Shown here: one piece after another, positions 1,263 through 54,813 of the stretch | Numbering within the stretch: the stretch's first letter is position 1 | Layout: each line of letters begins with the position of its first letter | Assembly: GCA_024672315.1 (NCBI GenBank) | Contig: GCA_024672315.1_4714.1 | Strand: one strand, 5' to 3' | Source: a phage | DNA: 64,000 bases | Program-made: the position numbers and the translations under genes | The notes under the pieces: generated by a model | What the model was told of the DNA's origin: nothing | Database searches by the model: none | The model's input: the letters and a program-made list of their open reading frames with translations, nothing else

Positions 1263-3875
1263 TTAAGCGTCCGGCGTAAAATCAAAAGGAATGTCCGTAC
1301 GAATGATATCATAACGTTTTCCGAGGAAATAAAACTCTTCGGGAACCTGGCCTGGAATGATGCTATCACCGATGAACTGCGGATACGCCCAGATGTACTG
1401 AGTGAGTCCTTCGAACATATCCAGGTTATTTGCGTGGTTACCCATGATACGTTTCCAGAGTTCGCGTTTATACGGCGTTTTAACATCGAACCCATAAAGC
1501 GGTGCAAGATCTTCACCAGGAACAAATCCCAGGTAATAGTGGATCTGACTAACCGGGAAACCAAGCGTATCTCGCGGAATGGTGATCGCTTGCTCAGCCT
1601 TGGTGACATGCGTCTCAATAATCCAGTCATAGCACTCCGAATAGAACCGATCGAATTTCTCTGGATTATACCATGCTTTGGGAAGATTGAGTTTCTCCGT
1701 GAACGCATTCGACATGATCGTCGGTAAGAACGGAAGAATACCGGTTTTGATCTGCGTGTATTTCGATTTTACCCGGTTAACGAGATTCCAGCAACTGTAT
1801 CCTAATTGGTCGTTACAAAACTCAACGTAGAGATCGTAGTCACCGCCGGATAATGGGTTGTTGATGTCACCGATGTCTGCGGCATATTTGTTGGGATATC
1901 GGTTATTGAAAGCCAGTTTGGTTTGGTAATCGTAGATACACGGTTTGTTGTTCGCTGTATTGATCCACCACCAAGGTTCACCTACCTGCACACAAATGTC
2001 CTGGACATGAGGGTAGATGATATCAGCAAATGCGGTTAACACATCCCCTAACCACGCCATCGCCTGTTGGTTACACGGAGACAACAACCAAGACGGTGGC
2101 GTATATCCGGTTGCTGCGATGTTTCCTTCCCAATCCTGCTGCGCCCATTCGAACGGGCATGCGGTACTCATCAATTCGTAACTTAAACTGATAGTGACAG
2201 AGAAATGGTGTTTTGCAGCATATGCAGCGAAAGCTTCATGCCACGCGATACAGGGCGGATTTAATACATCCGTGGTGTTCACCAGTAACTTACCCGCACT
2301 TGGTGTCCAGACAGTATCGTAGAAATGCGACATGCCAACATAATGCACTAATTCATCCTGATATCCCGCATAAACCAGGTTCTCAAATACACGCTCCGGC
2401 GTGATGTTGTAATGGTCATCATAAGCGGTTATCGCACGAAGTTCGTGTGGCGTACAGTGGTGGCGATTAACCGTCATTTCCTGATACACCCCATCGATAG
2501 GAAGAATCTCGATGGTTAAGCCGAGGTCGATCGGTGTTTCCAGATAGGTCGTTTCAGTCGCATCTTCCTTATAATGTCGAGAACTCATGCTGAACATCAA
2601 CGACGTTACCGATTCGAGTTCGATAGGTTCGTCAGCATAGAACCCCGCCATTGCGTCGTTGAAATCGATCGTTACGATTGCGCTTCTACCGTCTTCAGAG
2701 ACATCTGTCGCATATCGGGTTAATGAGATATACTGACGGCTATCGTCTTTGTGTACAACGGTTAAAACCGGCGGGTGTTCGGTATCTGCAAAGTTACGCT
2801 GATCGCCAGTAAACGTGATCTTCGCTTTAAAGATCAAACCAAGCAACGACGTCATGGGATCATACGCAATACAGCCGTGATCCAGCGTATCCGTTGTCCG
2901 CCATTCTATCCCGACCAACCCGTTAGCGGTATGGCATCGCATATACGCATTAAGTACCATGTCTTCACTGACAACCGCGAAGTTCTCTGTTGACTGACCG
3001 TTGATAATCCAATACATCGGCTGCCAGAGGTTACGCGTACCTTTTGCGTAGCGGTAGGTTGGTGCGCCTTTAGGGTTGCCGTTATTGAGATGGAATACGG
3101 CAGTACCTTGATAATGGTCGTTCGTATTAATCGGAACACTGTAAGCATCACCGAGGTCCGTACGTTCCACCTTCGTGATTGTTGCGTTTTCAAATAACCT
3201 ACGTAGCGCGGGTAAACCGATATCTTCAGGCGCGTTTTCTCGACGAATCGCATCCGCGATGCGGTGGGCTAAGGCGGGGTAAATGACTTCACCCTGTTGT
3301 AGGTTTGCAAGACCTACAAAGCGATCGGGGCCGATACCAGCAATCAATAACTCGACACCACCCTTCGTTCTATCGTCGTTAAGATATTTCAGTCCGGTAA
3401 GGTCAAGATGCTGAATAAGCGACAACAGGTTGTAATTACGGTTCTCAACAGTTAGTACAAGATCGCCCGCCCAAACCAAACTTCCCTCATCCGCTGTTAC
3501 TTTAACGGATTGTCGGCCTGTTGTAGACGTTGTTGTCGTTTTATTTAATTGTCCTTGTAGGAAGTCGGTTGCGAGGTCAAAGGCAATACCGTAACGGTCA
3601 GCGACCGCTTGCATGATTTCACGTAACTGGGTATCTTCTTCAATGATAATCTTGACAGGTATTCCCAAGAACGCTTTAGCAAGGTCTCGTTTAACCAACG
3701 AGACGAATACGGATTTGTAGTATCGGCTTCCATCTTTCCCTTTAAAAAGAATGGAGGTTGTTTCGGGTGCCGATAGAACACGTGCAAATACAACATCGTC
3801 GGAAGTAAGAGAAAGTCCGTTTTTCTCGTTGACCAATCTTAGTATTTCATTTTGCGCGGTTTCATGTAACTTCAT
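1263..3875 (-). CDS. tail fiber/tailspike protein (870 aa) with conserved N-terminal fiber domain and large enzyme-like C-terminal region
   Basis: N-terminus shares motif SLVKRDLAKAFLGIPVKIIIE with ORFs 9064-9591, 13408-14238 and 49364-50815; long aromatic-rich ORF. Confidence 0.65.
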   Translation of the reverse strand: MKLHETAQNEILRLVNEKNGLSLTSDDVVFARVLSAPETTSILFKGKDGSRYYKSVFVSLVKRDLAKAFLGIPVKIIIEEDTQLREIMQAVADRYGIAFDLATDFLQGQLNKTTTTSTTGRQSVKVTADEGSLVWAGDLVLTVENRNYNLLSLIQHLDLTGLKYLNDDRTKGGVELLIAGIGPDRFVGLANLQQGEVIYPALAHRIADAIRRENAPEDIGLPALRRLFENATITKVERTDLGDAYSVPINTNDHYQGTAVFHLNNGNPKGAPTYRYAKGTRNLWQPMYWIINGQSTENFAVVSEDMVLNAYMRCHTANGLVGIEWRTTDTLDHGCIAYDPMTSLLGLIFKAKITFTGDQRNFADTEHPPVLTVVHKDDSRQYISLTRYATDVSEDGRSAIVTIDFNDAMAGFYADEPIELESVTSLMFSMSSRHYKEDATETTYLETPIDLGLTIEILPIDGVYQEMTVNRHHCTPHELRAITAYDDHYNITPERVFENLVYAGYQDELVHYVGMSHFYDTVWTPSAGKLLVNTTDVLNPPCIAWHEAFAAYAAKHHFSVTISLSYELMSTACPFEWAQQDWEGNIAATGYTPPSWLLSPCNQQAMAWLGDVLTAFADIIYPHVQDICVQVGEPWWWINTANNKPCIYDYQTKLAFNNRYPNKYAADIGDINNPLSGGDYDLYVEFCNDQLGYSCWNLVNRVKSKYTQIKTGILPFLPTIMSNAFTEKLNLPKAWYNPEKFDRFYSECYDWIIETHVTKAEQAITIPRDTLGFPVSQIHYYLGFVPGEDLAPLYGFDVKTPYKRELWKRIMGNHANNLDMFEGLTQYIWAYPQFIGDSIIPGQVPEEFYFLGKRYDIIRTDIPFDFTPDA

Positions 3876-4716: not shown

Positions 4717-5223
4717 TTACTTACTGATAACCTCAACGGAGTTGGGATCAGCGATCAATGCACGGTCGGTAGAACAATTGAAGAAGACCATCCCAACACC
4801 ATCGCCGTTCGAGTTCAGGGTTGAACTTGCGTAAGACAATGTTGGTTTGTTCATGCGGTAGAAGCGTTCGCTGGTTGCGGTATTGAACCCCAGGTCAACG
4901 TAGTCTTTCACCGTGGTATACAACTGGGTGGACTCGAAAACGGTTACCGGAGAGTCAACGGTAAACTGACTGCCTTCATCCACAACCAGAACTTTATCGT
5001 TCCAGATTTCAGTGGTTGAGAACTTCGGTTTCCAATGTTCGAATTCCTGGGTTGCGCCCCAGCAAGAATACACAGCGAGATTGCTGTTCTTCTCAACAGG
5101 TTTCAAACCCACCAGTTGCGTCAGGTCTTTATCCAGGTTCGGTAAACCTTCCAGCGTAGCACACCCACCCAGAGAAAGCACCATCAACATACCAAGAACG
5201 ATCGCGCAAAGTTTCTTCATCAT
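4717..5223 (-). CDS. putative lipoprotein (168 aa)
   Basis: N-terminus MMKKLCAIVLGMLMVLSLGGC: signal peptide with lipobox-like LGGC; embedded in tail fiber cluster. Confidence 0.6.
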   Translation of the reverse strand: MMKKLCAIVLGMLMVLSLGGCATLEGLPNLDKDLTQLVGLKPVEKNSNLAVYSCWGATQEFEHWKPKFSTTEIWNDKVLVVDEGSQFTVDSPVTVFESTQLYTTVKDYVDLGFNTATSERFYRMNKPTLSYASSTLNSNGDGVGMVFFNCSTDRALIADPNSVEVISK

Positions 5224-5277
5224 CGGATTTCCTTATGTGTTAACGGAAGTGATTTCCATAAGAATAATCGTCCGATG

Positions 5278-8200
5278 TTAATATCCCTGGTTTGTAGCTC
5301 CTGCTGTACCTGCGAACTTCAGCCATTGCCCTTCCGGCGACAATGCGCTCCGATAATGATACACTACAATCATATTTGTCAAACCGCTATAATCTGCTTT
5401 ATGTTGCGTAGTAATACGTATCGTATAATCCAACCCGTTAGGGAAGTTGAATACTTCAATGATCGTACCGGCGAGCTGGAGAGCACCGAACCCGGTGATT
5501 GTTCCTGTGCTTCCGGCGTTCATGCCCATCGCATCGCCGAATCCAATCCAGTAGCGTTTCCGAAACGCACCTTCGCTTTTCAGATAGTTGATGAAGTCAC
5601 TAAACGACATGTTCATACCACCAGATGAAAGCGTGGATGTTTTAATCGCCATGTTAGGGATATCGCTACTGGATGCTTTATATCCTAATTTCGTATCGAT
5701 TTCTGACTTCGTATACGTAGACAGATCCGCCGCAGTTAACGTGATATTCGCCGAACCATCGAACGCTTTCCCGTTGATCGTACGCGCAGTCCGCAACTTC
5801 GTTGCCGTTGCTGCGTTTCCTGAAGTATTCTGATTACCAGCGGTGTTGACACCTGGTAGGTTAATATTAGCGCTGCCGTCAAAAGACACTCCGCCTATTG
5901 TCCGGGCCGTCTTTAACTTGGTCGCTGTCGCCGCATTTCCTGTGGTATCTTGGTTACCTGTGGTATTAACACCAGGTAAGTTGATGTTTGCTGTACCGTT
6001 GAATGATACCCCACCTATCGTTCTTGCCGTTTGAAGCCTTGTCGCTGAAGCGGCATTACCCGTCGTGTTTTGGTTACCTGTTGCATTCACACCCGGGATA
6101 CTATCCTTAGATGTGTAAATCTGTGCCCATTCCGACCATTTCGCATCGGTTGTATCGCGACGTGAACGTAAATAAGCTGGAGCGTGCGCGCCCGAGGTAC
6201 CCGACCATCCAATGAGGATTTCACCTTCACCAACCGATGAAGCACCTTTAAGATGAACAATGTTACCGTAGGCTGTAGGGTATCCGTTATTGTACACTTC
6301 ATACATCTGAATACCCGTATTGCTGCCCTGGGTCGCATTAGCTAAAGCGGTGACCCGTCCCTTGGAAGCGAGCACGTTAATGCTAAAGCTAATATCAGTT
6401 GTACCGTCAAAGGCGACCCCATTAATCCTCCGCGCCGTTTGGAGTTTCGTGGCAGTAGCCGCATTACCAGAGGTACTCTGATTACCCGCTTTGTTCACAC
6501 CCGGTAAATCAATGTTGGCGGTCCCATCAAAGGACACACCCCCTATGGTTCTCGCCGTCCGAAGTTTTGTTGCTGAACCAGCGTTTCCGGAAGTGCTTTG
6601 ATTCCCCGACGCGTTGACACCCGGTAGGTTAATGCTCGCAGAACCATCAAAAGAAACTCCGCCGATCGTGATCGGTGTTTGCAGCTTCGTGGCTGTCGCA
6701 GCATTACCCGTCGTATTCTGATTGCCAACCGCATTAACGCCTGGTAATGCGATATCGGCCGTACCATCGAACGCAACACCACCGATTTTACGGGCGGTCT
6801 GTAGCTTGGTCGCTGTCGCCGCGTTGCCGCTGGTATTTTGCGTGCCCGCTTCATTTACGCCTGGTAAATCAATGTTCGCAGTACCGTCAAAAGAAACACC
6901 CCCGATGGTTCTCGCGGTCTGCAACTTCGTTGCACTTCCTGCGTTTCCGCTGGTGCTTTGATTTCCCGCTGCATTAACACCTGGTAGACTGATGCTGGCT
7001 GAACCATCGAAACTCACACCACCGATCGTAACAGCGGTTTTCAATTTCGTGGCGGTTGCTGCGTTACCGGTTGTATTTTGGTTGCCTGTCGCATTCACGC
7101 CAGGTAATGCAATATCCGCTGTTCCGTCAAAGGCAACGCCACCGATTTTACGTGCAGTTTGTAGCTTGGTTGCACTAGCAGCGTTACCGCTGGTATTCTG
7201 GGTGCCCGCTTTGTTAACACCGGGGAGATCGATGTTAGCAGAACCATCGAAGCTGACGCCACCTATCGTTCTTGCGGTAGCGAGTTTAGCTGCTGTGGCT
7301 GCATTATTACCCACTTTCAGCCAATCATCCCATGGACCATCCTGGCCGTTCCATGATGCCGTTAAACTACGTACGTAAATATTGCCGGTACGTACAGTGT
7401 AACGTTGCGTTCCACCGAATTGCCCGGTTGGGAGCACTTCAATGTAACCTGCGGCGTTTGCTTCAGGGAAATTGTGGGCGATGTCCGCGTTCGTTGTTAC
7501 TGGTTTAGACCAAATACCCACAGACGCTTCGACTGGGCCGAAGGTATTCAGATTTGCGTCTATCGCCATAGCGCCATTAAATTTCAGGTATGTCTCTGAC
7601 GATAACCCGATCGTTTTAGCAAACGCAGCTTTATCTACGATATCACTACCGTTATTCCCTGCTTGCAACGCCGTCTTAGCTGCCTTTATGGTTTCGGTCA
7701 ATCCAAGATACTGTAAGATCGCATCAACGCTTCCTTTGTTTAGCAGATTCAGACCTGTTGACGTTACGTTAGTTAGTCCGATTTGGTTCCGTCCAGTAAA
7801 ATAAGGGAGTTTATTCGCTTCTGTTGTTAGGTTAGACCACGCAGTCAACAACGCGTTCAAAGGCTGTTTACCCGCCAACGCATTGGTTACTGTCGTTGCG
7901 AAATTAGGATCGTTCCCTAAAGCTTGAGCCAGCTCATTAAGCGTATTTAGCGCTTCTGGAGACGAGTCGATCAGCGATGCGATAGCGCGCATCACAAATT
8001 CCGTGTTGGCAATCTGTCGACTGCTATCGTTCTCTGCAGCCGTAGGCGCTGCCGGGATACCGGTGAACACGGGGCTATTAAGATCTGCCTTGAGCGCGAT
8101 GAGACGTTTAAGTGCGTCGACATCGACTTTCAGGTTTTCCCACCCGATGAGAGAACCACCACTGCTGGCATGATAACGGTTATACCAGAAGTCACCGTTA

Positions 8201-9057
8201 ATGCCTAAAAAGAATATTCCCTTCTCTTCGTTTTGTGGGCCAGAACTGTTCCGTGACGAGCTGATGTAATTGATTTCAATAAGACCGGTAAACGTCACTC
8301 CTGGAATTATTTTATTGTCTCCAGCTGACTGTGATACCTGGTAAATCCCCGGGGTTGCGGCTTTAACCCATGTTAAGAATTCTGTTACTCCAGCGGTGCC
8401 GCTAAAATTCTTAACGTCGGTAAGTATTGCCCCATAACCGAACATACCGGGTAGAGCCACTCGTCCGCTGGTACGATCACGAATATCTGTTGCAACAACA
8501 GGCAATTGTTTACGAACGGCATTAACCGCTTTAGGTGTAGCCGATTTTGTCTCGTCGTCGCTATCGGTTGCATTACTTAGAATAGTTAAACCGCGCGTAG
8601 CAGTCGTTGCATCAGGAAGAAATGCGTTATCCAACACCTTAAGCTGTACTGCACTCGTATTACTAACAACGACATGCACTTGACAGTTAAGAACGCTGGT
8701 TGCGCCTTCGGCAGGCGTAGGCTTATATCTTTCTGGTGCACTGCAGACGGCAATCAGAACACCTTGGTCATCATACAGACCGATCTCACGTACCCAGAAC
8801 CCACCTTGACCAGCAGGAATAATACCCTCAACGATAATCCTGGTTGTGCTGTCACCATCCGCATGGATATTAGAAACTTCCCCACGATAAACTTCGTGAA
8901 CAAGCGCTGTTTGGCTGGCGGTCGGAGTTGGGATCGAGCCGTTACCATCACCAACGGCAAAGTGTGTGATTTTTAGTTTCTCACCGTCGGGAAGTAACGC
9001 GGCGGTGATACGTTCTGCTCCTTTATCGGTAACTACCGTTATATATGCTGTACTCAT
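5278..9057 (-). CDS. tail fiber protein (1259 aa), P2 gpH-like N-terminal domain plus tandem fiber repeats
   Basis: N-terminus ITVVTDKGAERITAALLPDGEKLKITHFAVGDGNG...GGFWVREIGLYDDQGVLIAV matches the conserved N-domain of P2 gpH/Stf-type fibers; more than ten ~45-aa repeats of type GGVSFDGSANIDLPGVNxAGNQNTSGNAATATKLQTAR. Confidence 0.8.
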   Translation of the reverse strand: MSTAYITVVTDKGAERITAALLPDGEKLKITHFAVGDGNGSIPTPTASQTALVHEVYRGEVSNIHADGDSTTRIIVEGIIPAGQGGFWVREIGLYDDQGVLIAVCSAPERYKPTPAEGATSVLNCQVHVVVSNTSAVQLKVLDNAFLPDATTATRGLTILSNATDSDDETKSATPKAVNAVRKQLPVVATDIRDRTSGRVALPGMFGYGAILTDVKNFSGTAGVTEFLTWVKAATPGIYQVSQSAGDNKIIPGVTFTGLIEINYISSSRNSSGPQNEEKGIFFLGINGDFWYNRYHASSGGSLIGWENLKVDVDALKRLIALKADLNSPVFTGIPAAPTAAENDSSRQIANTEFVMRAIASLIDSSPEALNTLNELAQALGNDPNFATTVTNALAGKQPLNALLTAWSNLTTEANKLPYFTGRNQIGLTNVTSTGLNLLNKGSVDAILQYLGLTETIKAAKTALQAGNNGSDIVDKAAFAKTIGLSSETYLKFNGAMAIDANLNTFGPVEASVGIWSKPVTTNADIAHNFPEANAAGYIEVLPTGQFGGTQRYTVRTGNIYVRSLTASWNGQDGPWDDWLKVGNNAATAAKLATARTIGGVSFDGSANIDLPGVNKAGTQNTSGNAASATKLQTARKIGGVAFDGTADIALPGVNATGNQNTTGNAATATKLKTAVTIGGVSFDGSASISLPGVNAAGNQSTSGNAGSATKLQTARTIGGVSFDGTANIDLPGVNEAGTQNTSGNAATATKLQTARKIGGVAFDGTADIALPGVNAVGNQNTTGNAATATKLQTPITIGGVSFDGSASINLPGVNASGNQSTSGNAGSATKLRTARTIGGVSFDGTANIDLPGVNKAGNQSTSGNAATATKLQTARRINGVAFDGTTDISFSINVLASKGRVTALANATQGSNTGIQMYEVYNNGYPTAYGNIVHLKGASSVGEGEILIGWSGTSGAHAPAYLRSRRDTTDAKWSEWAQIYTSKDSIPGVNATGNQNTTGNAASATRLQTARTIGGVSFNGTANINLPGVNTTGNQDTTGNAATATKLKTARTIGGVSFDGSANINLPGVNTAGNQNTSGNAATATKLRTARTINGKAFDGSANITLTAADLSTYTKSEIDTKLGYKASSSDIPNMAIKTSTLSSGGMNMSFSDFINYLKSEGAFRKRYWIGFGDAMGMNAGSTGTITGFGALQLAGTIIEVFNFPNGLDYTIRITTQHKADYSGLTNMIVVYHYRSALSPEGQWLKFAGTAGATNQGY
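5610..7290 (-). repeat. in-frame tandem coding repeats (~135 bp period) inside tail fiber gene, interrupted by a non-repeat segment
   Basis: Near-identical DNA units visible (e.g. gttaacacctggtaggttaat...gccgtc recurring); boundaries approximate. Confidence 0.7.
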
Positions 9058-9063
9058 GTTGTT

Positions 9064-9591
9064 TTATCCTGGATAAATAGTGATGATATCACCAATGACG
9101 GTTGTGGCACCGGCGTAAAGATGAGCCGGAGATACATCGTGTTGGTTTGTCACAGTAAGATCCAATCGACCACGCCAAACCATGGAGGTATTCGCGATGG
9201 GGATAGAAATCTTTTTGGATATATCGTCACGAAAATCAATAACAGTGGCAAGGGTAACTGCATCAAAATCAACGTCGGGATCAAAGACGAACCCGTATTG
9301 ATCTGAAATCGCCCGAATAATCGCATGTATAGTTGTTGTCTCAACGGACTCTAAAACGATTTTTACCGGTATTCCTAAAAATGCCTTCGCGATATCGCGT
9401 CGAGCGTAAACGATAAAACTTTCACCGCACCACTTTGTTCCTTCATTTGCTGTGACGATCACTTTTGCCCTGTTAGCACCAGAACTCCCATCCAAGGTTA
9501 ATGTAAGATCGGAGCTGCTGAACACGCTACCGTTACGTTGGTTTATCAACGTAATCAGTTCGTCTTTCCATGGCGGGTAAAGTGAACGCAT
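9064..9591 (-). CDS. short fiber N-domain paralog (175 aa), encoded immediately upstream of the 1259-aa fiber
   Basis: Contains IVYARRDIAKAFLGIPVKIVLE motif shared with 870-aa, 276-aa and 483-aa proteins; 7-nt gap to next gene. Confidence 0.6.
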   Translation of the reverse strand: MRSLYPPWKDELITLINQRNGSVFSSSDLTLTLDGSSGANRAKVIVTANEGTKWCGESFIVYARRDIAKAFLGIPVKIVLESVETTTIHAIIRAISDQYGFVFDPDVDFDAVTLATVIDFRDDISKKISIPIANTSMVWRGRLDLTVTNQHDVSPAHLYAGATTVIGDIITIYPG

Positions 9592-9705
9592 AAGCGCAAC
9601 CCTCCTCCAACAGTCAAATTAAATTGTAAAACTCCTCGAGATCAGAGTGCGATTCGAGGTAAACGTAAACAGTCCAGACGACCGCATAAAATTCCGCGCA
9701 TATTG

Positions 9706-9737
9706 CCCCTCTATCTCGCTTTGTCGAGATAGAGGGG
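9706..9737 (-). terminator. 13-bp-stem hairpin
   Basis: cccctctatctcg-ctttgt-cgagatagagggg; followed on minus strand by ...TTTTATGCGG. Confidence 0.55.
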
Positions 9738-9773
9738 AGGATAATACGATTATGCTGCCGCACTCCAAAGTTC

Positions 9774-9794
9774 ATGGGGCGGTAACCGCCCCAT
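9774..9794 (-). terminator. hairpin immediately after stop of 1198-aa gene
   Basis: atggggcgg-taa-ccgccccat. Confidence 0.45.
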
Positions 9795-9797
9795 CGG

Positions 9798-12700
9798 TTA
9801 AATGGTTGGTTTTACATCACGTAATAAGGCAATATAATAGCCTAATCCTCGGAGGATCTCCCCACTCCAGAAACCAAAATACATTCCGTCTCTGCCGAGA
9901 TTAGCGCTATCTGGTGCAGGACTCCACCCACCATTCATTACGTCGTCAACAGTGTAATGGTTGATGTAGTTCTCAACGATTTCGTTATAAGCATTAACCG
10001 CAACAGAATAGCCTTTATCGTTGGGATGTCCGTACAACATTGCTAACGACGCACCCGCCAACCATAATCCCGCCATGTGACCAGTAAAGTCATTAGGGAT
10101 AAAAGCAGGGGGTTTATCCATCGGAAAATCCGTAGGGGATTGATAAGCGTTTTCCTGTTGATACGTAAACAAGAAATCGATCCAATGACTGATGTAAGTG
10201 GTTAATTTCTCAGGGACAGCCAAACCATGATCAAGCAGTCCAGCATAAAGCCTCACCGCTGAGAAGAAAGCCCTCGGCTGATAACCGGACCATGCCGTCT
10301 GATCGCCGAAGTGGTACATCGTAAAATCGTTAACTTTTGATCCGCTTGGCGCATCCCAACGATCCCACACGTACGCACTTGCCCCTGGCCCTAAAACCCC
10401 GAATTTCTGATAATACCACTGTTGTGAGTCATACCAGAAATTCACAACGTTCTGAATCATGAGGTCACGTCGTTCAGTCGGTACTTCCATATCCAGGAAG
10501 ACCCATGGATGTTGGTAGCCGGGATAAGGCTGACCACGCCAACTGTCGAACGTCGGTGCGTTAGGGATATAGTTGTTCGAGAACGGAATAATACCAGGAG
10601 TATAAGGCAGTGGGTCAAGACGTTGGTTGACAATCGTGCAATCGCCAACACGTAATGTTCCCTCTGCCTCAAAGGTTGCTTTTAACGTAAACAACATGGT
10701 ATATCCGTCATCCGTGGTGTAAGTTGACGGTGGATTGTTGATGGCGTAAAGCTTAAATACCCCTTCAGCGATATCGCTGTCGTCAGGCAAGAACAGAATT
10801 TCAGTTGAGCCATCGCCCCACACAGGTGCAGAAGGTTTAGGGTCAGTATCAGCGTGGCCCGGTTGATACCCTGAAAGCGTCCATCCGTTCACCGAAAGCG
10901 TCAACGTATTTCTTGCCGTGGTGGCCGGTAGCATATACCACCATCGCCAACCATTTGCATCTTCTACACGAACGTTGTAGTCAATCGACGCGAAATAACT
11001 GACCTGTCTTACGATCTGTTTTGCTGTTGGATTGAATTCAAATTGCCCGCCTGCTGCAGTAAGCTGCGCTTTTAGGAACAACCCATCCCAGGAATCTTCC
11101 ACCGCTTCGCTGAATTCTGTTGTGATGGCGACATCATCTTTCCAGCCGACTTTATCAGCCGATATCAACACAGAACCTGTAACAACATCACCGGTTGGTG
11201 TTGAAGCTTCATCAACCGCATCGGCAGGAATCAACGAGCCTATTTTGAAATCCCATTCTTTCGGTTCAGCGCTGGAAGGTAGTACCAGTTTGTACGTTTT
11301 GGCGTTCGCTTCGGTTTTGTCCAAAGAAAGCGATAATGAGATCTCAACCGGAATTGCAACACCTGCTGTATCTTTACCTCCGCAGGTTACACGAAGAATT
11401 GAATCACGATTGACGCGGAACGGAATGGCCTGCTGCTCAAGGTAAATTTGTGCTGAAGATGCTTGAATCACGATCCAGCCATCGGTATCACGCGTGATTG
11501 TAAACGGTGCTTTCGATGGGTATGTATACGTGTAAGCGATACCGTCGGTGTCGTAACGATCGGTTCCTTTTACCTGACGGAAGAACTTATCATTGGCGTC
11601 GATACGGGTATATTCTTCAATCGTAAACAACGATGCCTTGTACGCTTTCTGATAACGCTCCTGCTGCGTTAAACGGTATAAGGTGTAGGCTGCTTCACAA
11701 AACCACTGTTCAGCGTCTGACGCGTTTCCCATGTAGTCTCTGGTGACCGGCACCTGGATCGGTCGGTTATGCTGACATTCGTTCGTTTTGATAAGGTATC
11801 CGCCATATTCAACAGGAACACGGGGTGCCCATGCAACCAAGTAAGAACCGTTGACGGATTTATCTTTGAGTACGATAGTACCTACTTCATCGTCAGTACA
11901 CGCTTCAAGATCGTCTCCGTCAGCACTTACGTAACGTTTTGTGCGTAACGCAACTTTCTCGATAGGGAACACCGTACCCTTTGTATCCCAGTCAATTGTC
12001 CCATCATCATTGGTTTTGAACACATCCGCGTTCAAATTCTGCCAGCCGAGTTTACCCTCATAGACCTGAACAACAAGATCCATGTATTCCCCGAACGTTG
12101 GCGCACCGTGTGTTATTTTTCCGATACCGTTGGTGAATGTAACCGCTGTGTCATGGAAACCGCCATGTGTTGGGTAATCGTCTTTTGCAAGAGGATAATG
12201 GGCCAACACAGGTTGTTTACCATTAACAATCCAGTTAGCGATCCAGCGTGCTGGTGTATCCGGTGGTTCAAGGCCTGCATAGAACGCATTTATATACGCA
12301 TCGAACGATGCCTCCGCTAATGTGAGATAATGCGCTTTAAGCTTGGTATCATCCGTTGTATGACTGAATATACCCGCACCCAGAATTAACAACGACTGTC
12401 CTTCTGTTGTTGCGTCACCGTCCGGTTGTGCTTCTTGTCGTGTTGCTGCAATGAAATGACGGTTGTTTACCATGACTCCGCTTTCATTTAACACGTAATG
12501 ATCGGTTTCTGGATCGGTAAACGTTCCTGTGTTTCGGGTTAAGAATCTTGCATGACCATAACCAACGAAATTAACCGGCGACGCCGTAAGCACCCATTTA
12601 CCGATAAGTTGAGCGACGTCATTATAACGCTCCGATGCGGTGATTTGTTTCACGTACCAATCTTTACGGTTAAATGTCCAGAGCAGGAAGTAATAGGTTG

Positions 12701-13394
12701 TATTGATTTCCATCACTGGGAACGTCGGCGTTAACGGCTCCAGCGTTAAGTAGTTGCTCCAATCAATCTGTCCACCAACCACCGATGGGGTAATCTCTAA
12801 TAACTGACACCATTCATAACGGTTCGGTACACTACCGGACGTTGTTGGTAAAGGTAACTTGTATACGCCAGTACGATTCAGATCGAACGCTTTTCTAGCC
12901 GATCCTAAATCAACATAAATACTCGATGATGCGCTTGCATCAGATGCCTCCAAAGCACCTAGCGTTGACCGATACATTGAGATGAACAACGTATCTTTCC
13001 AGTAAGGGTTATCCTCGGTTGGTTCTAAAGCGATTTGTGCGGAGATGCTGTTCCATGTCCCTAACTGGTATGCTGCATTTAAAGATTCTTCCGTGAAATA
13101 ACTTTCCGCAATCGCCAGATGGAACTGTTCATTCAATAACGCGAGTGCACTGCGACCGGTAACATCCTCGTTACCGGTTTCTTTTTTCATGATCGCGCCG
13201 AACGGAAACAGTGTCGCGAATGACCGTTTTGGTTTATTAACCGTAACCGTCCCCGTGTATTTTCCAACACCATCAAGTTTTTGACTATCGCCAACAGCAG
13301 TGACTGCGATACCATCAACCGGGATATCTGTTTTATTTAGTATATTGAGTTGGTCAACCAGATCCTGCTTATCGTCAGGTAAGAATGTCGCCAT
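9798..13394 (-). CDS. large virion/tailspike-like protein (1198 aa)
   Basis: Very long ORF in fiber cluster, aromatic-rich, preceded by a fiber N-domain paralog gene; function not assignable from sequence. Confidence 0.55.
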   Translation of the reverse strand: MATFLPDDKQDLVDQLNILNKTDIPVDGIAVTAVGDSQKLDGVGKYTGTVTVNKPKRSFATLFPFGAIMKKETGNEDVTGRSALALLNEQFHLAIAESYFTEESLNAAYQLGTWNSISAQIALEPTEDNPYWKDTLFISMYRSTLGALEASDASASSSIYVDLGSARKAFDLNRTGVYKLPLPTTSGSVPNRYEWCQLLEITPSVVGGQIDWSNYLTLEPLTPTFPVMEINTTYYFLLWTFNRKDWYVKQITASERYNDVAQLIGKWVLTASPVNFVGYGHARFLTRNTGTFTDPETDHYVLNESGVMVNNRHFIAATRQEAQPDGDATTEGQSLLILGAGIFSHTTDDTKLKAHYLTLAEASFDAYINAFYAGLEPPDTPARWIANWIVNGKQPVLAHYPLAKDDYPTHGGFHDTAVTFTNGIGKITHGAPTFGEYMDLVVQVYEGKLGWQNLNADVFKTNDDGTIDWDTKGTVFPIEKVALRTKRYVSADGDDLEACTDDEVGTIVLKDKSVNGSYLVAWAPRVPVEYGGYLIKTNECQHNRPIQVPVTRDYMGNASDAEQWFCEAAYTLYRLTQQERYQKAYKASLFTIEEYTRIDANDKFFRQVKGTDRYDTDGIAYTYTYPSKAPFTITRDTDGWIVIQASSAQIYLEQQAIPFRVNRDSILRVTCGGKDTAGVAIPVEISLSLSLDKTEANAKTYKLVLPSSAEPKEWDFKIGSLIPADAVDEASTPTGDVVTGSVLISADKVGWKDDVAITTEFSEAVEDSWDGLFLKAQLTAAGGQFEFNPTAKQIVRQVSYFASIDYNVRVEDANGWRWWYMLPATTARNTLTLSVNGWTLSGYQPGHADTDPKPSAPVWGDGSTEILFLPDDSDIAEGVFKLYAINNPPSTYTTDDGYTMLFTLKATFEAEGTLRVGDCTIVNQRLDPLPYTPGIIPFSNNYIPNAPTFDSWRGQPYPGYQHPWVFLDMEVPTERRDLMIQNVVNFWYDSQQWYYQKFGVLGPGASAYVWDRWDAPSGSKVNDFTMYHFGDQTAWSGYQPRAFFSAVRLYAGLLDHGLAVPEKLTTYISHWIDFLFTYQQENAYQSPTDFPMDKPPAFIPNDFTGHMAGLWLAGASLAMLYGHPNDKGYSVAVNAYNEIVENYINHYTVDDVMNGGWSPAPDSANLGRDGMYFGFWSGEILRGLGYYIALLRDVKPTI

Positions 13395-13407
13395 TATTTA
13401 CTCCACC

Positions 13408-14238
13408 TTAATCGTAACTAAAATAAAGTTTGCTGCTGACGCCGCTATCGGAATGAGGTTTTAACACCAGAACAGAGCTTCCGAACGACGGAAGTATTGG
13501 AACATTTAAATCGTTTGCGTCGGCAACTTTTCCATTATAAACGACACTGGCTGTTGTGATGAGTTCCCAAGCCGAGGCATAACTCATTGAAATCAGCGAT
13601 GAGGCTAAACGGAATGCGTTGTATCCTTCGGGAGTATCTCCAACCGACATCGAACGTATCGCATCTTGCGGCGGTAAATTTAGCTTGATGCCGTATGTAC
13701 TGAATGTGTGGAAATCCCCTTGTTTACTATCTTCTGGATAATACGAGGTTAGTGGTTCTCGTACCGTAAACAGTTCGCTAATATCGGCACTTACATCTTT
13801 TCGTGCGAGGAATTGAAACGTACCGTACCACGATGCTGACGCGTCAGAAAGAACGGGAACAGATATGGTTTTCTCGCCGCTTTCAAATTTAACCTGTGAC
13901 GCTAACGCTGAAGAATCAAAGATCGTTAAATCGATCTTCAACCCATACTTCTTAAACAGCTGCGTTAAGCAGTCTGCTGTCGTCGTCTTATCAGCAACGA
14001 CAATAAAAGGTTGGTGTTTGATAAAGAGCTTATTAATATCGCGACGTTGAAGATAAACCTGTACGGGGTCTTCGACGTAGTAAACCGATTGTGGTGTGGG
14101 GGCTATAGAAAGGCGTAACCGACCTGATGCACCATACCAGGCTGGCGTTAACGTAATGTCTGACAGAGACAGCGGATGCTGGAGATAAGCGTTTATTTTA
14201 GATAACGCTTCTTCCTGCCACGATGCTTCAGGATACAT
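13408..14238 (-). CDS. fiber N-domain paralog (276 aa)
   Basis: Motif YLQRRDINKLFIKHQPFIVVADKT aligns with RRDIAKAFLGIP family; directly upstream of 1198-aa gene. Confidence 0.55.
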   Translation of the reverse strand: MYPEASWQEEALSKINAYLQHPLSLSDITLTPAWYGASGRLRLSIAPTPQSVYYVEDPVQVYLQRRDINKLFIKHQPFIVVADKTTTADCLTQLFKKYGLKIDLTIFDSSALASQVKFESGEKTISVPVLSDASASWYGTFQFLARKDVSADISELFTVREPLTSYYPEDSKQGDFHTFSTYGIKLNLPPQDAIRSMSVGDTPEGYNAFRLASSLISMSYASAWELITTASVVYNGKVADANDLNVPILPSFGSSVLVLKPHSDSGVSSKLYFSYD

Positions 14239-14320: not shown

Positions 14321-14353
14321 ACGGTGTTCATCCCTAAAAAGGATGAACACCGT
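14321..14353 (-). terminator. intrinsic terminator (13-bp stem plus T-tract)
   Basis: acggtgttcatcc-ctaaaaa-ggatgaacaccgt, followed on minus strand by TTTTCCTATTTTTCGTTTTTTTTT. Confidence 0.75.
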
Positions 14354-21424: not shown

Positions 21425-21502
21425 GATTACTGTCCTTTTGAAATATGTTTAGATAAGGAGGATTTACCCGGTATTAAAAGTTATTTGGTGTATGTAATGT
21501 TT

Positions 21503-22102
21503 TTACTTAGGTTCCAGTATTGGTCCGAACAACCAGAATGTCAGACGCTGGTAAACCTGTTCGATGACTGCAGCTTCTGTTTGCTCTTCTAGTGCTTTCC
21601 CTTTCTTATGTTGTATTTCTGGCGGGATGTCGCCGTTGTAAACATACCCTGTTGAGAAGTCCCACGCCAACCGTTTACCGAAAGTGGGTAAGAACACCTC
21701 TTCGAATCGGAACGCTTTCGAATTCCAATGAAGCAGCTGATCGGATTCAACATGTAAGGCTTTATTACGTTTGCTTGGCGTGTTTCCGAAGTACTGAACG
21801 ATAGCTGATTTCATAACCCGATCGGCGAAGTCTTTGGCTTCGGCCTCATCGAGGGGAGGCAGACGATGTGATAGATTCAGCTTGCGTTGTTCAACATCAA
21901 TCTTACGCATCGCTTTAATCAAATCACCAGGAACGATTTTACCCTTATGGCCTTCCTGTCGGTGTACGAAACACCCCTGGAATAGCACGCAAAGTTCTTG
22001 AGGTGCGCTACTTTCCATTCGCCCATAAGCAACAATCACCGATCGACGACGATCAATAACTTCGCGGATAAACCGCGGCTCAGTAATACTCACCACTGTC
22101 AT
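21503..22102 (-). CDS. hypothetical protein (199 aa)
   Basis: ORF. Confidence 0.5.
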   Translation of the reverse strand: MTVVSITEPRFIREVIDRRRSVIVAYGRMESSAPQELCVLFQGCFVHRQEGHKGKIVPGDLIKAMRKIDVEQRKLNLSHRLPPLDEAEAKDFADRVMKSAIVQYFGNTPSKRNKALHVESDQLLHWNSKAFRFEEVFLPTFGKRLAWDFSTGYVYNGDIPPEIQHKKGKALEEQTEAAVIEQVYQRLTFWLFGPILEPK

Positions 22103-49363: not shown

Positions 49364-50815
49364 ATGAAACTTAAACAAAGCTGGAAAGACGAACTTCTCG
49401 CGTTAGTAAACAGCAAAAACAGCTTACAGCTGACATTAGACGACGTAAAATTTGAACTAACTGAACCGGTAAGCGAAGTGCCCGGAACGGTTGTCGTTAC
49501 GATCAAACCGAACGATGATAGCCGTTACTTTAACGAGCAGTCTCTGACCTACATCCGTCGAGACATCGCTAAAAACTTCACCGGGATCCCGTTACGCGTT
49601 ATCGTTAAAAATGATACCGCTGTAAGGGATATCATCAACACGATCGCTGAACGTTACGGATTGGTATTTGACACAACCGTCGACTTCCTCGAATCCGAGC
49701 TGAATAAACAAATTACGTTCGAAGACACCGGTATTAAAGACATTACGGTTCCGGTTGCAAACACGTCTTATGTTTGGGCTGGTAATCTTCAGTTCAATAT
49801 CGCTAACGATACGTTGAGCTTGATTACGATCATCAAGCAAACCAATCTTACGAATCTGGTTTATCTGGATGGCGTTGAAGCTGACACATCGGGTTCGTTA
49901 CTGTTAGCAACGACCTCGGTTATCGGCGAAAACGGAAATGCCGAAACAACTGAAGGTGTCCTTGCCGCCACGTACTTCCAGAATATCCTGAACGTCATGG
50001 TTCGTTATGGTGATATTACCAGCGAACAAATGCAACAAGCAATGCAGACAATTAACGAAAGCGAAGACGCTCGTAGAGTAGAGGTGCGGTCATACGGTGA
50101 CGCCGAGTTACTGGTAACCACCAAGAAAGATTGGGTTATCGGTAGCCTTAAGGGTGCTATGGTTGTTGGTCACGCTTCACCTAAACCAATCCAATACATT
50201 CTTAAAACAAAAGGCGGCAGCATTATATTGTCATTAGATGGTTGGACAAATGTCAATATCGATTGGGGTGATGGGAATAAGACGACGGAGACCTCAGGCG
50301 ATAATGAATATCGACACAATTATGCGGACACTACAGAACGTACGATCGTCGCTACGGGTACCCCTACCAACGTTGAAGATACAGAGGTACAGCAAAGCTT
50401 CACCGGTGGTAACATCACTGAAATCGTTGACTGGAACAACGGATTACCTAAGGCCCCATCATTCCTTGCGGCGAACAGTTTAACTAAGGTTCCTGATTAT
50501 ATCCCGGCATACTGGACATCGTTAGAAGGTATGTTTACGCGATGCAGCGCTATTAACAACGTGAACATCACCAAATGGAACACCCGCAACATTACTTCAA
50601 TGAAGGACCTCTTCTACGGTTGCGCTACATTCAACCAACCGATCGGTTCGTGGGATGTTTCGTCTGTTAAGAATGCAGACAATATGTTGTCTGGGTGCTT
50701 CGCGTTCAATCAGGATCTGAGCGGTTGGACGTTCCCGGCAGGCACTTCACACGTCAACTACGACGCCATGACCGCCGCATGGCAGGCTGGTTATAAACCA
50801 CACTTCGCCGAGTAA
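49364..50815 (+). CDS. tail fiber protein (483 aa) with shared N-terminal fiber domain
   Basis: SWKDELLALVNSKNSLQLTLDDV...TYIRRDIAKNFTGIPLRVIVK matches the N-domain of three leftward paralogs. Confidence 0.65.
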   Translation: MKLKQSWKDELLALVNSKNSLQLTLDDVKFELTEPVSEVPGTVVVTIKPNDDSRYFNEQSLTYIRRDIAKNFTGIPLRVIVKNDTAVRDIINTIAERYGLVFDTTVDFLESELNKQITFEDTGIKDITVPVANTSYVWAGNLQFNIANDTLSLITIIKQTNLTNLVYLDGVEADTSGSLLLATTSVIGENGNAETTEGVLAATYFQNILNVMVRYGDITSEQMQQAMQTINESEDARRVEVRSYGDAELLVTTKKDWVIGSLKGAMVVGHASPKPIQYILKTKGGSIILSLDGWTNVNIDWGDGNKTTETSGDNEYRHNYADTTERTIVATGTPTNVEDTEVQQSFTGGNITEIVDWNNGLPKAPSFLAANSLTKVPDYIPAYWTSLEGMFTRCSAINNVNITKWNTRNITSMKDLFYGCATFNQPIGSWDVSSVKNADNMLSGCFAFNQDLSGWTFPAGTSHVNYDAMTAAWQAGYKPHFAE

Positions 50816-52182: not shown

Positions 52183-54813
52183 TTACAATTCAAAATCTTC
52201 ATCGATAACACGCTGGGTAAGCACTTTGTCGCTGAAGAACTCCACCTTGCGCTGATGGTATTTACGGTGCGCTTCGATAGAAGTACATACCAGATACCAG
52301 AACGTTGGCGTCATTCCTTCAAACTTCCCTTTCAGCTGACGCAGTCGTCCCAACACCTGAATGTTACCGGTTCGTGACCCCATCGCTAGCGTCATGAACG
52401 TCATCACCAAGTCAGGAAGGTCGATACCTGTACCTGCTGATTTCACGGTTGTAACGCTAATATCGTTATCCAGCAAGACCATGAAATCTTCTTCAGCAGT
52501 ATAAGGACCGATCTCTAACTCAGGAATACGCTCACTGAGATAGTGCGACAACGACTTACACATATCAACGGTTGCACAATACACCAGCATCTTCATGCCT
52601 TCCTGATACTGGTTCATGAAACCCTTGATAATAACGGTATAGATGAAGTTAAAGTACGCGAGTTTGAGTTGCTTGTTCTTCATGATAGACTGTTCGAATA
52701 TCGTGTGTGAATAAGCTCCGCCAAACCCTTTGTATCTGACTTTATCTGTACTGCGTAGTCGATATGTTACCGCATTTACCGCAATGTATTTCTTGTATTC
52801 GCCTTTCGCATAACGGGCTTCTTTCGGATACATCAAATACAACATCTGTTCGATAAACGGATCATCGGATACCGCTGTTGCCGACAGATAAATGATTTCC
52901 GGAATATTGGCGTAACACTTGACCTTAAACAAGAAATGCAATGCTTCGTGACACTCGTCATGAATCAGCAAACCTATGCCGGTCTTTTCCCAAAACTCAG
53001 CGGGATGGAAGGCATATGGTGCAACGCAATTATTCTTCTCGTAGTCCGCAATGTAACGTTGGAACATGTTCAAGGAGAACAATGCGATTTTGAAGTCGAG
53101 CTCACCTTGTTCAACCAAGGTTTGAAACTCCAACATACTGTAACGAGGAATGTCGGGATGCGGTGGATCCTCCTTAGCGTTCCCGCGTATCTCGATAACG
53201 TCCCCTGGTTCCATCCCGAAGAAGTTCAGCAGTGAGCTTCGCCAACCTGGCATGTATCTCGGCGACAGAATGATACCCGTCCGTACACCACGTCTAAACA
53301 CGATTTCCTGTGACATCGCGGTGTTATGCGTGACGATAAAGTCTTTCACCACAAACAACGCTGAAGGATCATCGATCGTAATGCAACGTGCATCCGCAAC
53401 ACGGGAAGGTTTAATTGACAGTACACGTAGCATACTTTCGAAGTATTGTCCGTCAACAGGACAGCGTTCCAGCTTCTTCGGAAGCGTAACGATTTCATGC
53501 GGACGTTTATACCGTATCGTAACCATGTACGCTAGCCGTCCCTTATGTCTCTCCCCCTTGTAGGTGTAATACGGTTGTTTAATACGTAGACGAGCATACC
53601 CACCAATCGAACGAACCAAGTAGATAACGTCATCTGAAAGCTGTTTGCTCGAAGTACAGAAAACAATAGATCCTCCCTTCTCCACCGTTCCGTCGGTATC
53701 GATAAGACCTGCGAGTATTTCGCAACGTTGTCTGTGTGACGCCATCATGTACTGTTTCGGAACAAACTTCTCCCAGGATCGTTTACCCATCAACCCCAAC
53801 TGATCAAGCGCTAATGCCGTCTCTGACCGCCCACCGTAATTGATTAACGTTGCGGCAGGCGTCTTCGTTACCGCATAGTCGTATTTCTCGCGGTACTGTA
53901 TTTCACAGTCATCCGGAAGACGACTTAACACCTTATTCAAGATGAAATCGTCAGGAGTTGTGATTATCGGGGATGTTGATAAATGACCATCCCCTAACAG
54001 AACACCAAGCACGTACGGATCAAGCGGTAGATCTGCATCAGGAGTATGCTCAGACTCACAGTACGGAATGTAAAGTCGTTTATTGGACAGCTCCAGGATA
54101 CGAATCATCTCAAGTGTATTGATAACCCGCATGGGATAAGGATTGTTTTTGTCCCATCCCCAGTTAGGTCTCATACATGCCCAGAGATGCTCGCCGCAGG
54201 CTTCAACACGGCGACCGTCAGCAAAGACAATCTCATAGAGCTGTTTTGCTTTATGGTCGAAGATATTGGTTACCTTCGTTGGTCGGCCATTAGCAGCCGT
54301 GATGGTATCACCTATCTTCAAATCGCCTAATTGACGCCATCCGCCAGGGACTTTTACGAGCGTGGTAAGCGGATTTGCTTTACCCGACCCCGTTTGAGCG
54401 GTGTTTAGGCTCATTCTGAAGGGGGTATCCTTACCCCCGTCCATGTACTCCAACCATTCTTGCTGATCTTCACGCCATGGAAACTTCCATTTCTTTACGA
54501 ACTCCACTTCTTTACCTGGCACCGGATCGTGATAAACGATTTCCAACCACTCTTTTCGTATCCCTCGGGAAAAGATAAAATCCAAAAACGATTTCAATTG
54601 TTCACGGAGTAAGTATACCTCGCTATAATCGCTTCTCGCTGCGGCATACGTGTTTATGGTATCGGTAACCATTCTCCGTGTACGAGGGTCACGCCGTTTC
54701 CTCAGATGCAAACAACGGTCTCGAAGGTAATGGCCGATAAGATGGGCAAATCGAAGTCCGTATCCGCTCAGCCTCATGCCATGCGAGAAGACGTCGATAC
54801 GAGCTAACTTCAT
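52183..54813 (-). CDS. DExH-box SF2 helicase interrupted by an intein (876-aa precursor; ~524 aa after splicing)
   Basis: Motif I AQTGSGK|T split by insert, motif II LLIHDECHE, motif III YLSATAV, motif V TVKSAGTGIDLP, motif VI QVLGRLRQ. Confidence 0.7.
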   Translation of the reverse strand: MKLARIDVFSHGMRLSGYGLRFAHLIGHYLRDRCLHLRKRRDPRTRRMVTDTINTYAAARSDYSEVYLLREQLKSFLDFIFSRGIRKEWLEIVYHDPVPGKEVEFVKKWKFPWREDQQEWLEYMDGGKDTPFRMSLNTAQTGSGKANPLTTLVKVPGGWRQLGDLKIGDTITAANGRPTKVTNIFDHKAKQLYEIVFADGRRVEACGEHLWACMRPNWGWDKNNPYPMRVINTLEMIRILELSNKRLYIPYCESEHTPDADLPLDPYVLGVLLGDGHLSTSPIITTPDDFILNKVLSRLPDDCEIQYREKYDYAVTKTPAATLINYGGRSETALALDQLGLMGKRSWEKFVPKQYMMASHRQRCEILAGLIDTDGTVEKGGSIVFCTSSKQLSDDVIYLVRSIGGYARLRIKQPYYTYKGERHKGRLAYMVTIRYKRPHEIVTLPKKLERCPVDGQYFESMLRVLSIKPSRVADARCITIDDPSALFVVKDFIVTHNTAMSQEIVFRRGVRTGIILSPRYMPGWRSSLLNFFGMEPGDVIEIRGNAKEDPPHPDIPRYSMLEFQTLVEQGELDFKIALFSLNMFQRYIADYEKNNCVAPYAFHPAEFWEKTGIGLLIHDECHEALHFLFKVKCYANIPEIIYLSATAVSDDPFIEQMLYLMYPKEARYAKGEYKKYIAVNAVTYRLRSTDKVRYKGFGGAYSHTIFEQSIMKNKQLKLAYFNFIYTVIIKGFMNQYQEGMKMLVYCATVDMCKSLSHYLSERIPELEIGPYTAEEDFMVLLDNDISVTTVKSAGTGIDLPDLVMTFMTLAMGSRTGNIQVLGRLRQLKGKFEGMTPTFWYLVCTSIEAHRKYHQRKVEFFSDKVLTQRVIDEDFEL
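53323..54378 (-). other. intein with LAGLIDADG homing endonuclease domain (~352 aa) in helicase P-loop
   Basis: Begins ANPLTTLVKV after GSGK, ends ...FIVTHN before T; two LAGLIDADG motifs LGVLLGDGHLS and LAGLIDTDGTVEK; excision recreates AQTGSGKT. Confidence 0.65.

Follow-up and report, generated by a model that had tools for sequence, protein, structure and literature searches.

A recent preprint (Basu et al., bioRxiv 10.64898/2026.04.21.720040, 22 April 2026) deals with the virion of Escherichia phage vB_EcoM_Goslar, a nucleus-forming jumbo phage (237 kb, genus Goslarvirus). That work describes a chimallivirus-specific family of proteins, DUF7941, with ten Goslar members (gp22, gp23, gp31, gp33, gp34, gp86, gp91, gp92, gp93, and gp161). 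The module in these proteins runs from a globular N-terminal domain into a disordered linker, after which a C-terminal domain may or may not follow. The present analysis concerns a cluster of such genes around positions 9064 to 14238 of a 64,000-nt stretch of phage DNA (contig GCA_024672315.1_4714.1, below simply the window), together with related genes elsewhere in it. Five proteins encoded in the window belong, with very little doubt, to the DUF7941 family, and the explanation of them as parts of DUF7941 chains at the virion baseplate is given a probability of roughly 0.7. Their orthologues are already named as DUF7941 proteins in the preprint and the feature is thus a known one; the value of the window is confirmatory, the family and the gene cluster being conserved in a second Goslar-type phage. 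The comparative detail added consists of a fifth copy of the N-terminal domain on a 1198-aa protein (found without recourse to the preprint), a linker motif that is conserved, metagenomic relatives in which parts of the cluster are deleted or inserted, and a mosaic boundary at the junction of N-terminal domain and cargo in one gene.

In the published Goslar work, AlphaFold3 predicts dimers arranged head to tail, the first protein docking by its linker or C-terminal domain onto the N-terminal domain of the second, and purified gp22 forms filaments visible by negative-stain electron microscopy (EM). A "DUF7941 fiber cloud" at the peripheral baseplate was proposed, with carbohydrate-binding, hydrolase, and leucine-rich repeat (LRR) domains of gp86, gp92, and gp161 serving in host recognition. 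Copy numbers per virion, which are approximate values from label-free mass spectrometry (LFQ-MS), were ~2144 for gp23, ~577 for gp22, ~112 for gp33, ~111 for gp161, ~27 for gp34, ~8.5 for gp31, ~4.9 for gp92, ~4.8 for gp93, ~4.5 for gp86, and ~1.2 for gp91, with ~43 for the tail fibre gp90 (Basu et al., bioRxiv 10.64898/2026.04.21.720040). In phage phiKZ, each "star lobe" of the outer peripheral baseplate has a single gp127, which lies where a band of gp139 dimers ends (Xiao et al., 2026, PMC13250141). This protein (~290 aa) has an N-terminal domain, a linker, and a C-terminal domain, as does a 276-aa protein of the window, and phiKZ gp126 and gp127 are numbered consecutively, just as DUF7941 genes of the window are adjacent. 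At least three members are reported for phiKZ (gp143 being grouped with gp126 and gp127) as against 10 in Goslar, and none with a large cargo has been described there.

The window is 94.7–95.8% identical to Goslar at the nucleotide level and matches it gene for gene; on this basis it is assigned to a Goslar-like, nucleus-forming E. coli jumbo phage, a different isolate (~95% nucleotide identity) encoding the family in a chimallivirus context. All six open reading frames (ORFs) named in a preliminary description of the window are present where it placed them. Five are on the minus strand: the 870-aa ORF (1263–3875, orthologue of Goslar gp86), the 1259-aa ORF (5278–9057, gp90), the 175-aa ORF (9064–9591, gp91), the 1198-aa ORF (9798–13394, gp92), and the 276-aa ORF (13408–14238, gp93). 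The sixth, the 483-aa ORF (49364–50815), is on the plus strand and is the orthologue of gp161; its N-terminal domain is 98% identical to that of the Goslar gene at 145134. Amino-acid identity to Goslar gp86, gp91, gp92, and gp93 is 96–99% (96% for gp93). The Goslar DUF7941 proteins have the same gene order and the same domain architectures, and the DUF7941 genes of the window are no different in kind.

The preliminary description had proposed that the 870-, 483-, 175-, and 276-aa proteins share an N-terminal domain of about 90 aa. The similarity is far beyond chance, though the shared region is closer to 150 aa long. When the N-terminal 170 aa of each protein were compared by BLASTP with all window ORFs of at least 50 aa, the four domains matched one another over ~150 residues with E values of 1e-8 to 1e-40, with next-best matches in the window at E ≥0.03. 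Two of the direct pairs are weak, one of them 870/276 (E ~0.1), whose members are connected via the other two proteins. All four also exceed the gathering score (27 bits) of the 276-position Pfam model DUF7941 (PF25613), with 143 bits for the 870-aa protein, 87.1 for the 483-aa protein, 57.9 for the 175-aa protein, and 37.2 for the 276-aa protein, and all four match PHROGs 1037 and 2935 ("virion structural protein"). Chance resemblance was therefore rejected on two counts, the BLASTP E values and the Pfam matches above threshold, and the significance of the proposed similarity was upheld. The core motif (R/K)RD(I/L)(A/N)K..F..GIP is likewise present, except that the 276-aa protein departs from it and reads RRDINKLFIKHQP.

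With a profile built from just the four window domains, no additional copy came to light in the window. A profile scan of 1.84 billion representative proteins (HMMER) returned 327 relatives at E ≤0.001, and a wider profile rebuilt from 150 of these detected a fifth, divergent copy in residues 1–142 of the 1198-aa protein (nt 12969–13394, minus strand), with an E value of 2.5e-7 over model positions 1–148. The orthologues of this protein match the same profile (E 6.7e-8 in Goslar and 6e-12 in the metagenomic relative L002). With the Pfam model, the 1198-aa domain scores 16.1 bits, which is below threshold. No window ORF other than the five family members was matched by the 150-member profile, the 1259-aa fibre included. 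Two details of the earlier description change accordingly: the 1198-aa giant itself carries the module, and the 1259-aa giant is an unrelated fibre of the P2/P1 type.

The fold of the domain links it to the phiKZ baseplate. An AlphaFold2 (AF2) model of the 175-aa protein has a compact alpha/beta domain at residues 7–150 (nt 9142–9573, minus strand), with a predicted local distance difference test score (pLDDT) of ~80, followed by a tail (residues 153–175) with pLDDT below 50, predicted to be disordered. In a Foldseek search with this model, the sole significant match in the PDB was 9xqd_0 (E 1.3e-6, probability 1.00, template modeling (TM) scores 0.56/0.64), covering all 150 residues at ~14% sequence identity. 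A sequence profile search of the PDB gave nothing, and 9XQD was recovered only by fold comparison. This entry is the phiKZ outer peripheral baseplate (Xiao et al., 2026, PMC13250141); its code is printed as 9QXD in the Goslar preprint (Basu et al., bioRxiv 10.64898/2026.04.21.720040). Chain 9xqd_0 was assigned to gp127 residues 1–150 because its length of 150 fits, as does the preprint's description of the part that was modeled. The predicted N-terminal domain thus has the fold of a phiKZ outer-baseplate chain, and that chain is probably gp127. For the 1198-aa protein, the modeled N-terminal domain (pLDDT 65) has the helix and strand order of the 175-aa model minus one strand, and its only PDB match was again 9xqd_0 (E 5e-4, TM 0.36). 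This model is counted as weak support because of the poor superposition and because the alignment behind it included paralogues.

Beyond the shared domain the five proteins differ. The 870-aa protein has DUF7941 at residues 2–277, NCTSP_N at 285–442, and TIM-barrel_NCTSP at 476–837 (143, 40.9, and 286 bits in Pfam); its relatives by sequence in the PDB are 9lc0 Gp64 and "non-contractile tail sheath," a term on which nothing useful was found in the literature. It had been called a tailspike, a label that finds no backing here, with NCTSP_N and TIM-barrel_NCTSP in place of any tailspike or beta-helix (pectate-lyase-type) Pfam family. In the 483-aa protein, the N-terminal domain and linker (residues 1–187) are followed by BspA-type LRRs (DUF285), with Pfam scores of 87.1 bits for DUF7941 and 77.4 bits for DUF285, and "fiber" is a loose name for it. 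In the 276-aa protein, the N-terminal domain (residues 1–160, nt 13759–14238, minus strand; E 1.4e-37 with the family profile) is followed by a linker and a C-terminal domain. The Pfam match to the 870-aa protein covers the entire 276-position model and that to the 276-aa protein positions 62–274, with the family profile covering the N-terminal domain of the latter, so both proteins carry all three parts. Searches by phmmer from their post-domain regions found close relatives only. The cargo of the 1198-aa protein is a "tail protein" region (phrog_2871) at residues 279–1190. A ~50-aa stretch within the first 330 aa of this protein (nt 12405–13394) is 63–69% identical to two proteins from a bacterial database (P0185 and P0186, one labeled Enterobacter asburiae), and may be a module that it shares with prophage tail proteins; a homologue search with these 330 aa returned only three fragments.

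Following the domain, a linker motif of roughly L-x3-I-x4-L-x-G-L-x-Y-P is conserved in the family. The 870-, 483-, and 276-aa proteins have this motif, and the 1198-aa protein has a modified version. In the 175-aa protein it is truncated; this protein ends in a 25-aa tail, predicted to be disordered, with the conserved terminus ...GDIITIYPG. A homologue search with the 175-aa protein found close orthologues only: 29 of 35 matches were near full length, all of 175–176 aa, down to 60% identity. In these 29 orthologues the tail is conserved about as well as the domain, with an invariant ITIYPG end, a pattern that would fit a docking peptide.

Among predicted viral structures (BFVD), 73 fold matches were found, and all of the named ones are from phiKZ-like jumbo phages (Goslar, Eowyn, PhiEaH1, RisingSun, PhiPA3, EL, Moabite, RAY, and Aeromonas PS1); a tblastn search of 50,697 phage records gave matches only in phages of 212–307 kb. 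The domain is N-terminal in 141 of the 150 representatives, in proteins of ~150 to 2581 aa, with size classes of 140–210 aa (48 proteins), 210–330 aa (32), 450–700 aa (38), and more than 1000 aa (nine). A few proteins have two or three N-terminal domains in tandem, ~175–190 aa apart, a spacing equal to one gp91-like unit; such fusions are what would be expected if the units associate in series. Two of the proteins, P0073 (556 aa) and P0079 (519 aa), have three tandem N-terminal domains each and are natural concatemers of the stand-alone unit. Arrays of separate paralogues are general. Erwinia phage EarlPhillipIV (L012, 5528–21698) has at least 13 within 16 kb (gp136–gp145, gp148, gp151, and gp152, most annotated "virion structural protein"), an expansion well beyond that of Goslar, and Serratia phage PCH45 has four.

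Taken together with the published work, these results suggest the following arrangement. Each protein contributes a globular N-terminal domain of ~150 aa and a conserved linker, followed by nothing (175 aa), by a small C-terminal domain (276 aa), or by a large cargo: the TIM-barrel NCTSP-type domain (870 aa), the BspA-type LRRs (483 aa), or the gp92 "tail protein" domain (1198 aa). The linker of one protomer, alone or with the C-terminal domain, would dock on the N-terminal domain of the next, giving flexible chains. These would begin at the outer peripheral baseplate, in which the gp139 band of phiKZ has the N-terminal domain of gp127 at its end. The 175- and 276-aa proteins would be linking or extending units of these chains, and the 870-, 1198-, and 483-aa proteins would display carbohydrate-binding, hydrolase, or LRR domains for recognition of the host surface. 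The earlier idea of a shared attachment module with varied distal domains and several receptors agrees with the Goslar publication and with the 9XQD fold; what changes is that chaining is proposed in place of a plain common socket. Support for head-to-tail docking from the linker motif, the conserved disordered gp91 tail, and the tandem fusions is indirect, and for head-to-tail display, taken as a mechanism by itself, the odds are put only slightly better than even.

Several points weigh against this arrangement. Published evidence for head-to-tail association covers only Goslar gp22 and gp23 and phiKZ gp126–gp127, filaments have been seen only for Goslar gp22 and in vitro, and the Goslar baseplate has no resolved DUF7941 density (Basu et al., bioRxiv 10.64898/2026.04.21.720040). 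For the five window proteins, docking would rest on the published AlphaFold predictions, and the model of the 1198-aa N-terminal domain is of low confidence, from a paralogue-containing alignment, and superimposes poorly on 9XQD. The Goslar virion preparation also held chimallin and PhuZ (same preprint), so "virion-associated" is not to be read strictly, and gp91 at ~1.2 copies is close to noise. Finally, about five copies each of gp86, gp92, and gp93 would fit six fixed sites on the baseplate equally well.

This last point is the basis of an alternative in which the 870-, 1198-, and 276-aa proteins are anchored singly, each attached directly by its N-terminal domain to a six-fold site of its own on the peripheral baseplate, as phiKZ gp127 is, to give a conventional branched set of six-copy appendages and no long filaments. 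Copy numbers of ~4.5, ~4.9, and ~4.8 for gp86, gp92, and gp93 are indeed near six, exactly one gp127 is found in each phiKZ star lobe, and the window domain has the fold of a chain in that very baseplate entry. The same structure, however, shows only one DUF7941 site per lobe, the linker motif and natural tandem arrays point to serial association, and fixed sites are impossible for gp161 (~111 copies), gp33 (~112), gp22 (~577), and gp23 (~2144). This explanation remains a live one for the low-copy members, at perhaps one chance in four.

Somewhat more doubtful is the idea that the short proteins are dedicated adaptors, the 276-aa protein mounting the 1198-aa one and the 175-aa protein mounting the 1259-aa fibre. 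The short genes do lie directly upstream of the giants, as had been described, with gaps of 13 nt (276 to 1198 aa) and 6 nt (175 to 1259 aa), and the tightness of this spacing is in favor of pairing. For the first pair there is more. In Goslar gp93 and gp92 are equimolar (~4.8 and ~4.9 copies), they occur jointly in Goslar, L002, and L007, both are missing from L005, and they have diverged together from L002, with 60% identity for gp93 and 60–84% for the first ~200 aa of gp92, as against ~95% for the remaining ~1000 aa of the latter (L002 4506–8102). Co-occurrence of adjacent genes in close relatives is weak evidence, however, and the joint divergence is equally explained by a recombination block. 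For the second pair, the 175-aa gene precedes the fibre gene in the window, Goslar, and L002 to L005, but a gp91:fibre stoichiometry of ~1.2 to ~43 copies is hard to reconcile with an adaptor, L008 has gp91 without the fibre, and the fibre, which lacks DUF7941, brings a P2-type N-terminal domain for its own attachment. The 175-aa protein as adaptor for the 1259-aa fibre is disfavored on these three grounds.

Flanking genes are 72–96% identical between the window and L002; gp91 is 65% identical. The mosaic boundary that these values place in gp92, near the junction of N-terminal domain and cargo, could result from gp93 and the gp92 N-terminal domain adapting to each other, or simply from a recombination block. 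An elaboration of the chain arrangement would account for it: in an ordered relay, gene order would mirror assembly order and the linker or C-terminal domain of each short member would be tuned to the N-terminal domain of one partner, so that the 276-aa protein and the 1198-aa N-terminal domain would co-evolve as a pair while the distal cargo was swapped freely between lineages. This would explain the lower identity of gp93 and gp92 residues 1–200 relative to the cargo, and if true it would mean a programmable, plug-in receptor-binding system in these phages, but for now it is a speculative proposal with odds of perhaps one in five.

Metagenomic relatives of the locus, for which a search of IMG/VR returned Goslar-like contigs only, vary considerably across the cluster. 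In L002 the order is gp93, gp92, an extra 584-aa gene with DUF7941 and DUF285, gp91, and the fibre gene. The product of the extra gene is 47% identical to that of the distant 483-aa gene of the window, and it lies exactly where the window has a 206-nt non-coding gap with three hairpins (9592–9797) between the 1198- and 175-aa genes. This gap may be the scar of an insertion or excision, or else have a regulatory role. L003 and L004 share a single deletion from gp93 residue 215 to gp92 residue 928 (L003 6635–8054, L004 6099–7518). L005 is without gp93 and gp92, with gp91 and the fibre kept. L008 (2224–3848) has a deletion from gp93 residue 81 to gp92 residue 742 and no fibre gene, with gp91 and gp86 kept. 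DUF7941 genes are thus gained, lost, and exchanged as modules in these relatives, and the cluster appears to be a deletion hot-spot. Given the losses in L003, L004, L005, and L008, neither giant is required in every lineage, and since L008 retains gp91 without the fibre, the 175-aa gene is independent of the latter.

Such deletions leave fragments (a 215-aa truncated gp93 and a 255-aa piece of gp92, residues 929–1170, in L003 and L004; an 85-aa gp93 stump and gp92 residues 742–1198 in L008), but the further suggestion that the short genes of the window are non-functional N-terminal leftovers of fibre-gene recombination is very improbable, since both are full length and under purifying selection, with ratios of nonsynonymous to synonymous substitution (dN/dS) relative to Goslar of 0.15 for gp91 and 0.16 for gp93 (0.09 for gp92 and 0.06 for gp86), their size classes are the commonest in the family, the 29 orthologues of the 175-aa protein are of uniform length with an invariant C-terminus, and both proteins were detected in Goslar virion preparations by mass spectrometry.

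N-terminal adaptor modules that build branched assemblies of tailspikes or fibres are familiar from the TSP1–4 complex of CBA120/ViI and from G7C gp63.1/gp66. The logic is similar, with conserved N-terminal modules, several receptor-binding proteins per virion, and clustered, mosaic genes; the difference is that the fold is unrelated and the complex is trimeric, fixed, and branched. These systems are not known to have a proposed head-to-tail polymer, or stand-alone proteins consisting of the module only at hundreds to thousands of copies. In nucleus-forming jumbo phages, much of the adsorption apparatus is made up of DUF7941 proteins, which are specific to this lineage. Such phages attract interest for therapy since they evade many DNA-targeting defences, and being able to tell anchoring from host-recognizing modules would permit engineering of host range.

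The 1259-aa neighbor stands outside the shared-module set. It matches Pfam Phage_tail_fib (PF12571; 142 bits over residues 1–141), Phage_fiber_2 (PF03406), and PHROG tail-fibre families, and is by these matches a tail fibre of the P2 gpH/P1 S type, sharing the Phage_tail_fib N-terminal domain and Phage_fiber_2 repeats with fibres of the P2 gpH, P1 S, and Mu type. It is 90% identical to Goslar gp90 over residues 1–1113 and unrelated beyond; the divergent tip is the C-terminal ~150 aa (5261–5737) and adjoins a 54-nt gap (5224–5277). The window is also without the separate tail-fibre assembly gene of Goslar, gp89 (Caudo_TAP), and together these differences look like the swap of a receptor-binding-tip cassette. 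In L002 to L005 the fibre tip is different again and has a Peptidase_S74 chaperone domain. Also within the cluster of fibre and DUF7941 genes is a 168-aa ORF (4717–5223, minus strand) orthologous to Goslar gp88, for which neither a Pfam family nor a match to the DUF7941 profile was found; gp88 is present at ~737 copies per virion by mass spectrometry (Basu et al., bioRxiv 10.64898/2026.04.21.720040).

A terminator-like hairpin is found at 14321–14353 (minus strand), just upstream of the 276-aa gene, with a 15-bp stem followed by a T run, matching the consensus; the cluster may be transcribed as a unit of its own that begins at this putative element. A scan of the window for sigma-70 promoters gave 19 sites as against 26.7 in shuffled controls and is, with fewer sites than the controls, uninformative for this phage.

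Elsewhere in the window, two small indels were noted relative to Goslar: gp108 (417 nt) is absent near ~21456–21503, and ~860 bp around gp112/gp113 are absent near ~23553. Near the 483-aa gene, an 876-aa ORF (52183–54813, minus strand) has LAGLIDADG and Hom_end homing-endonuclease domains at residues 353–435 and is probably an intein, or a homing endonuclease inserted into a larger gene.

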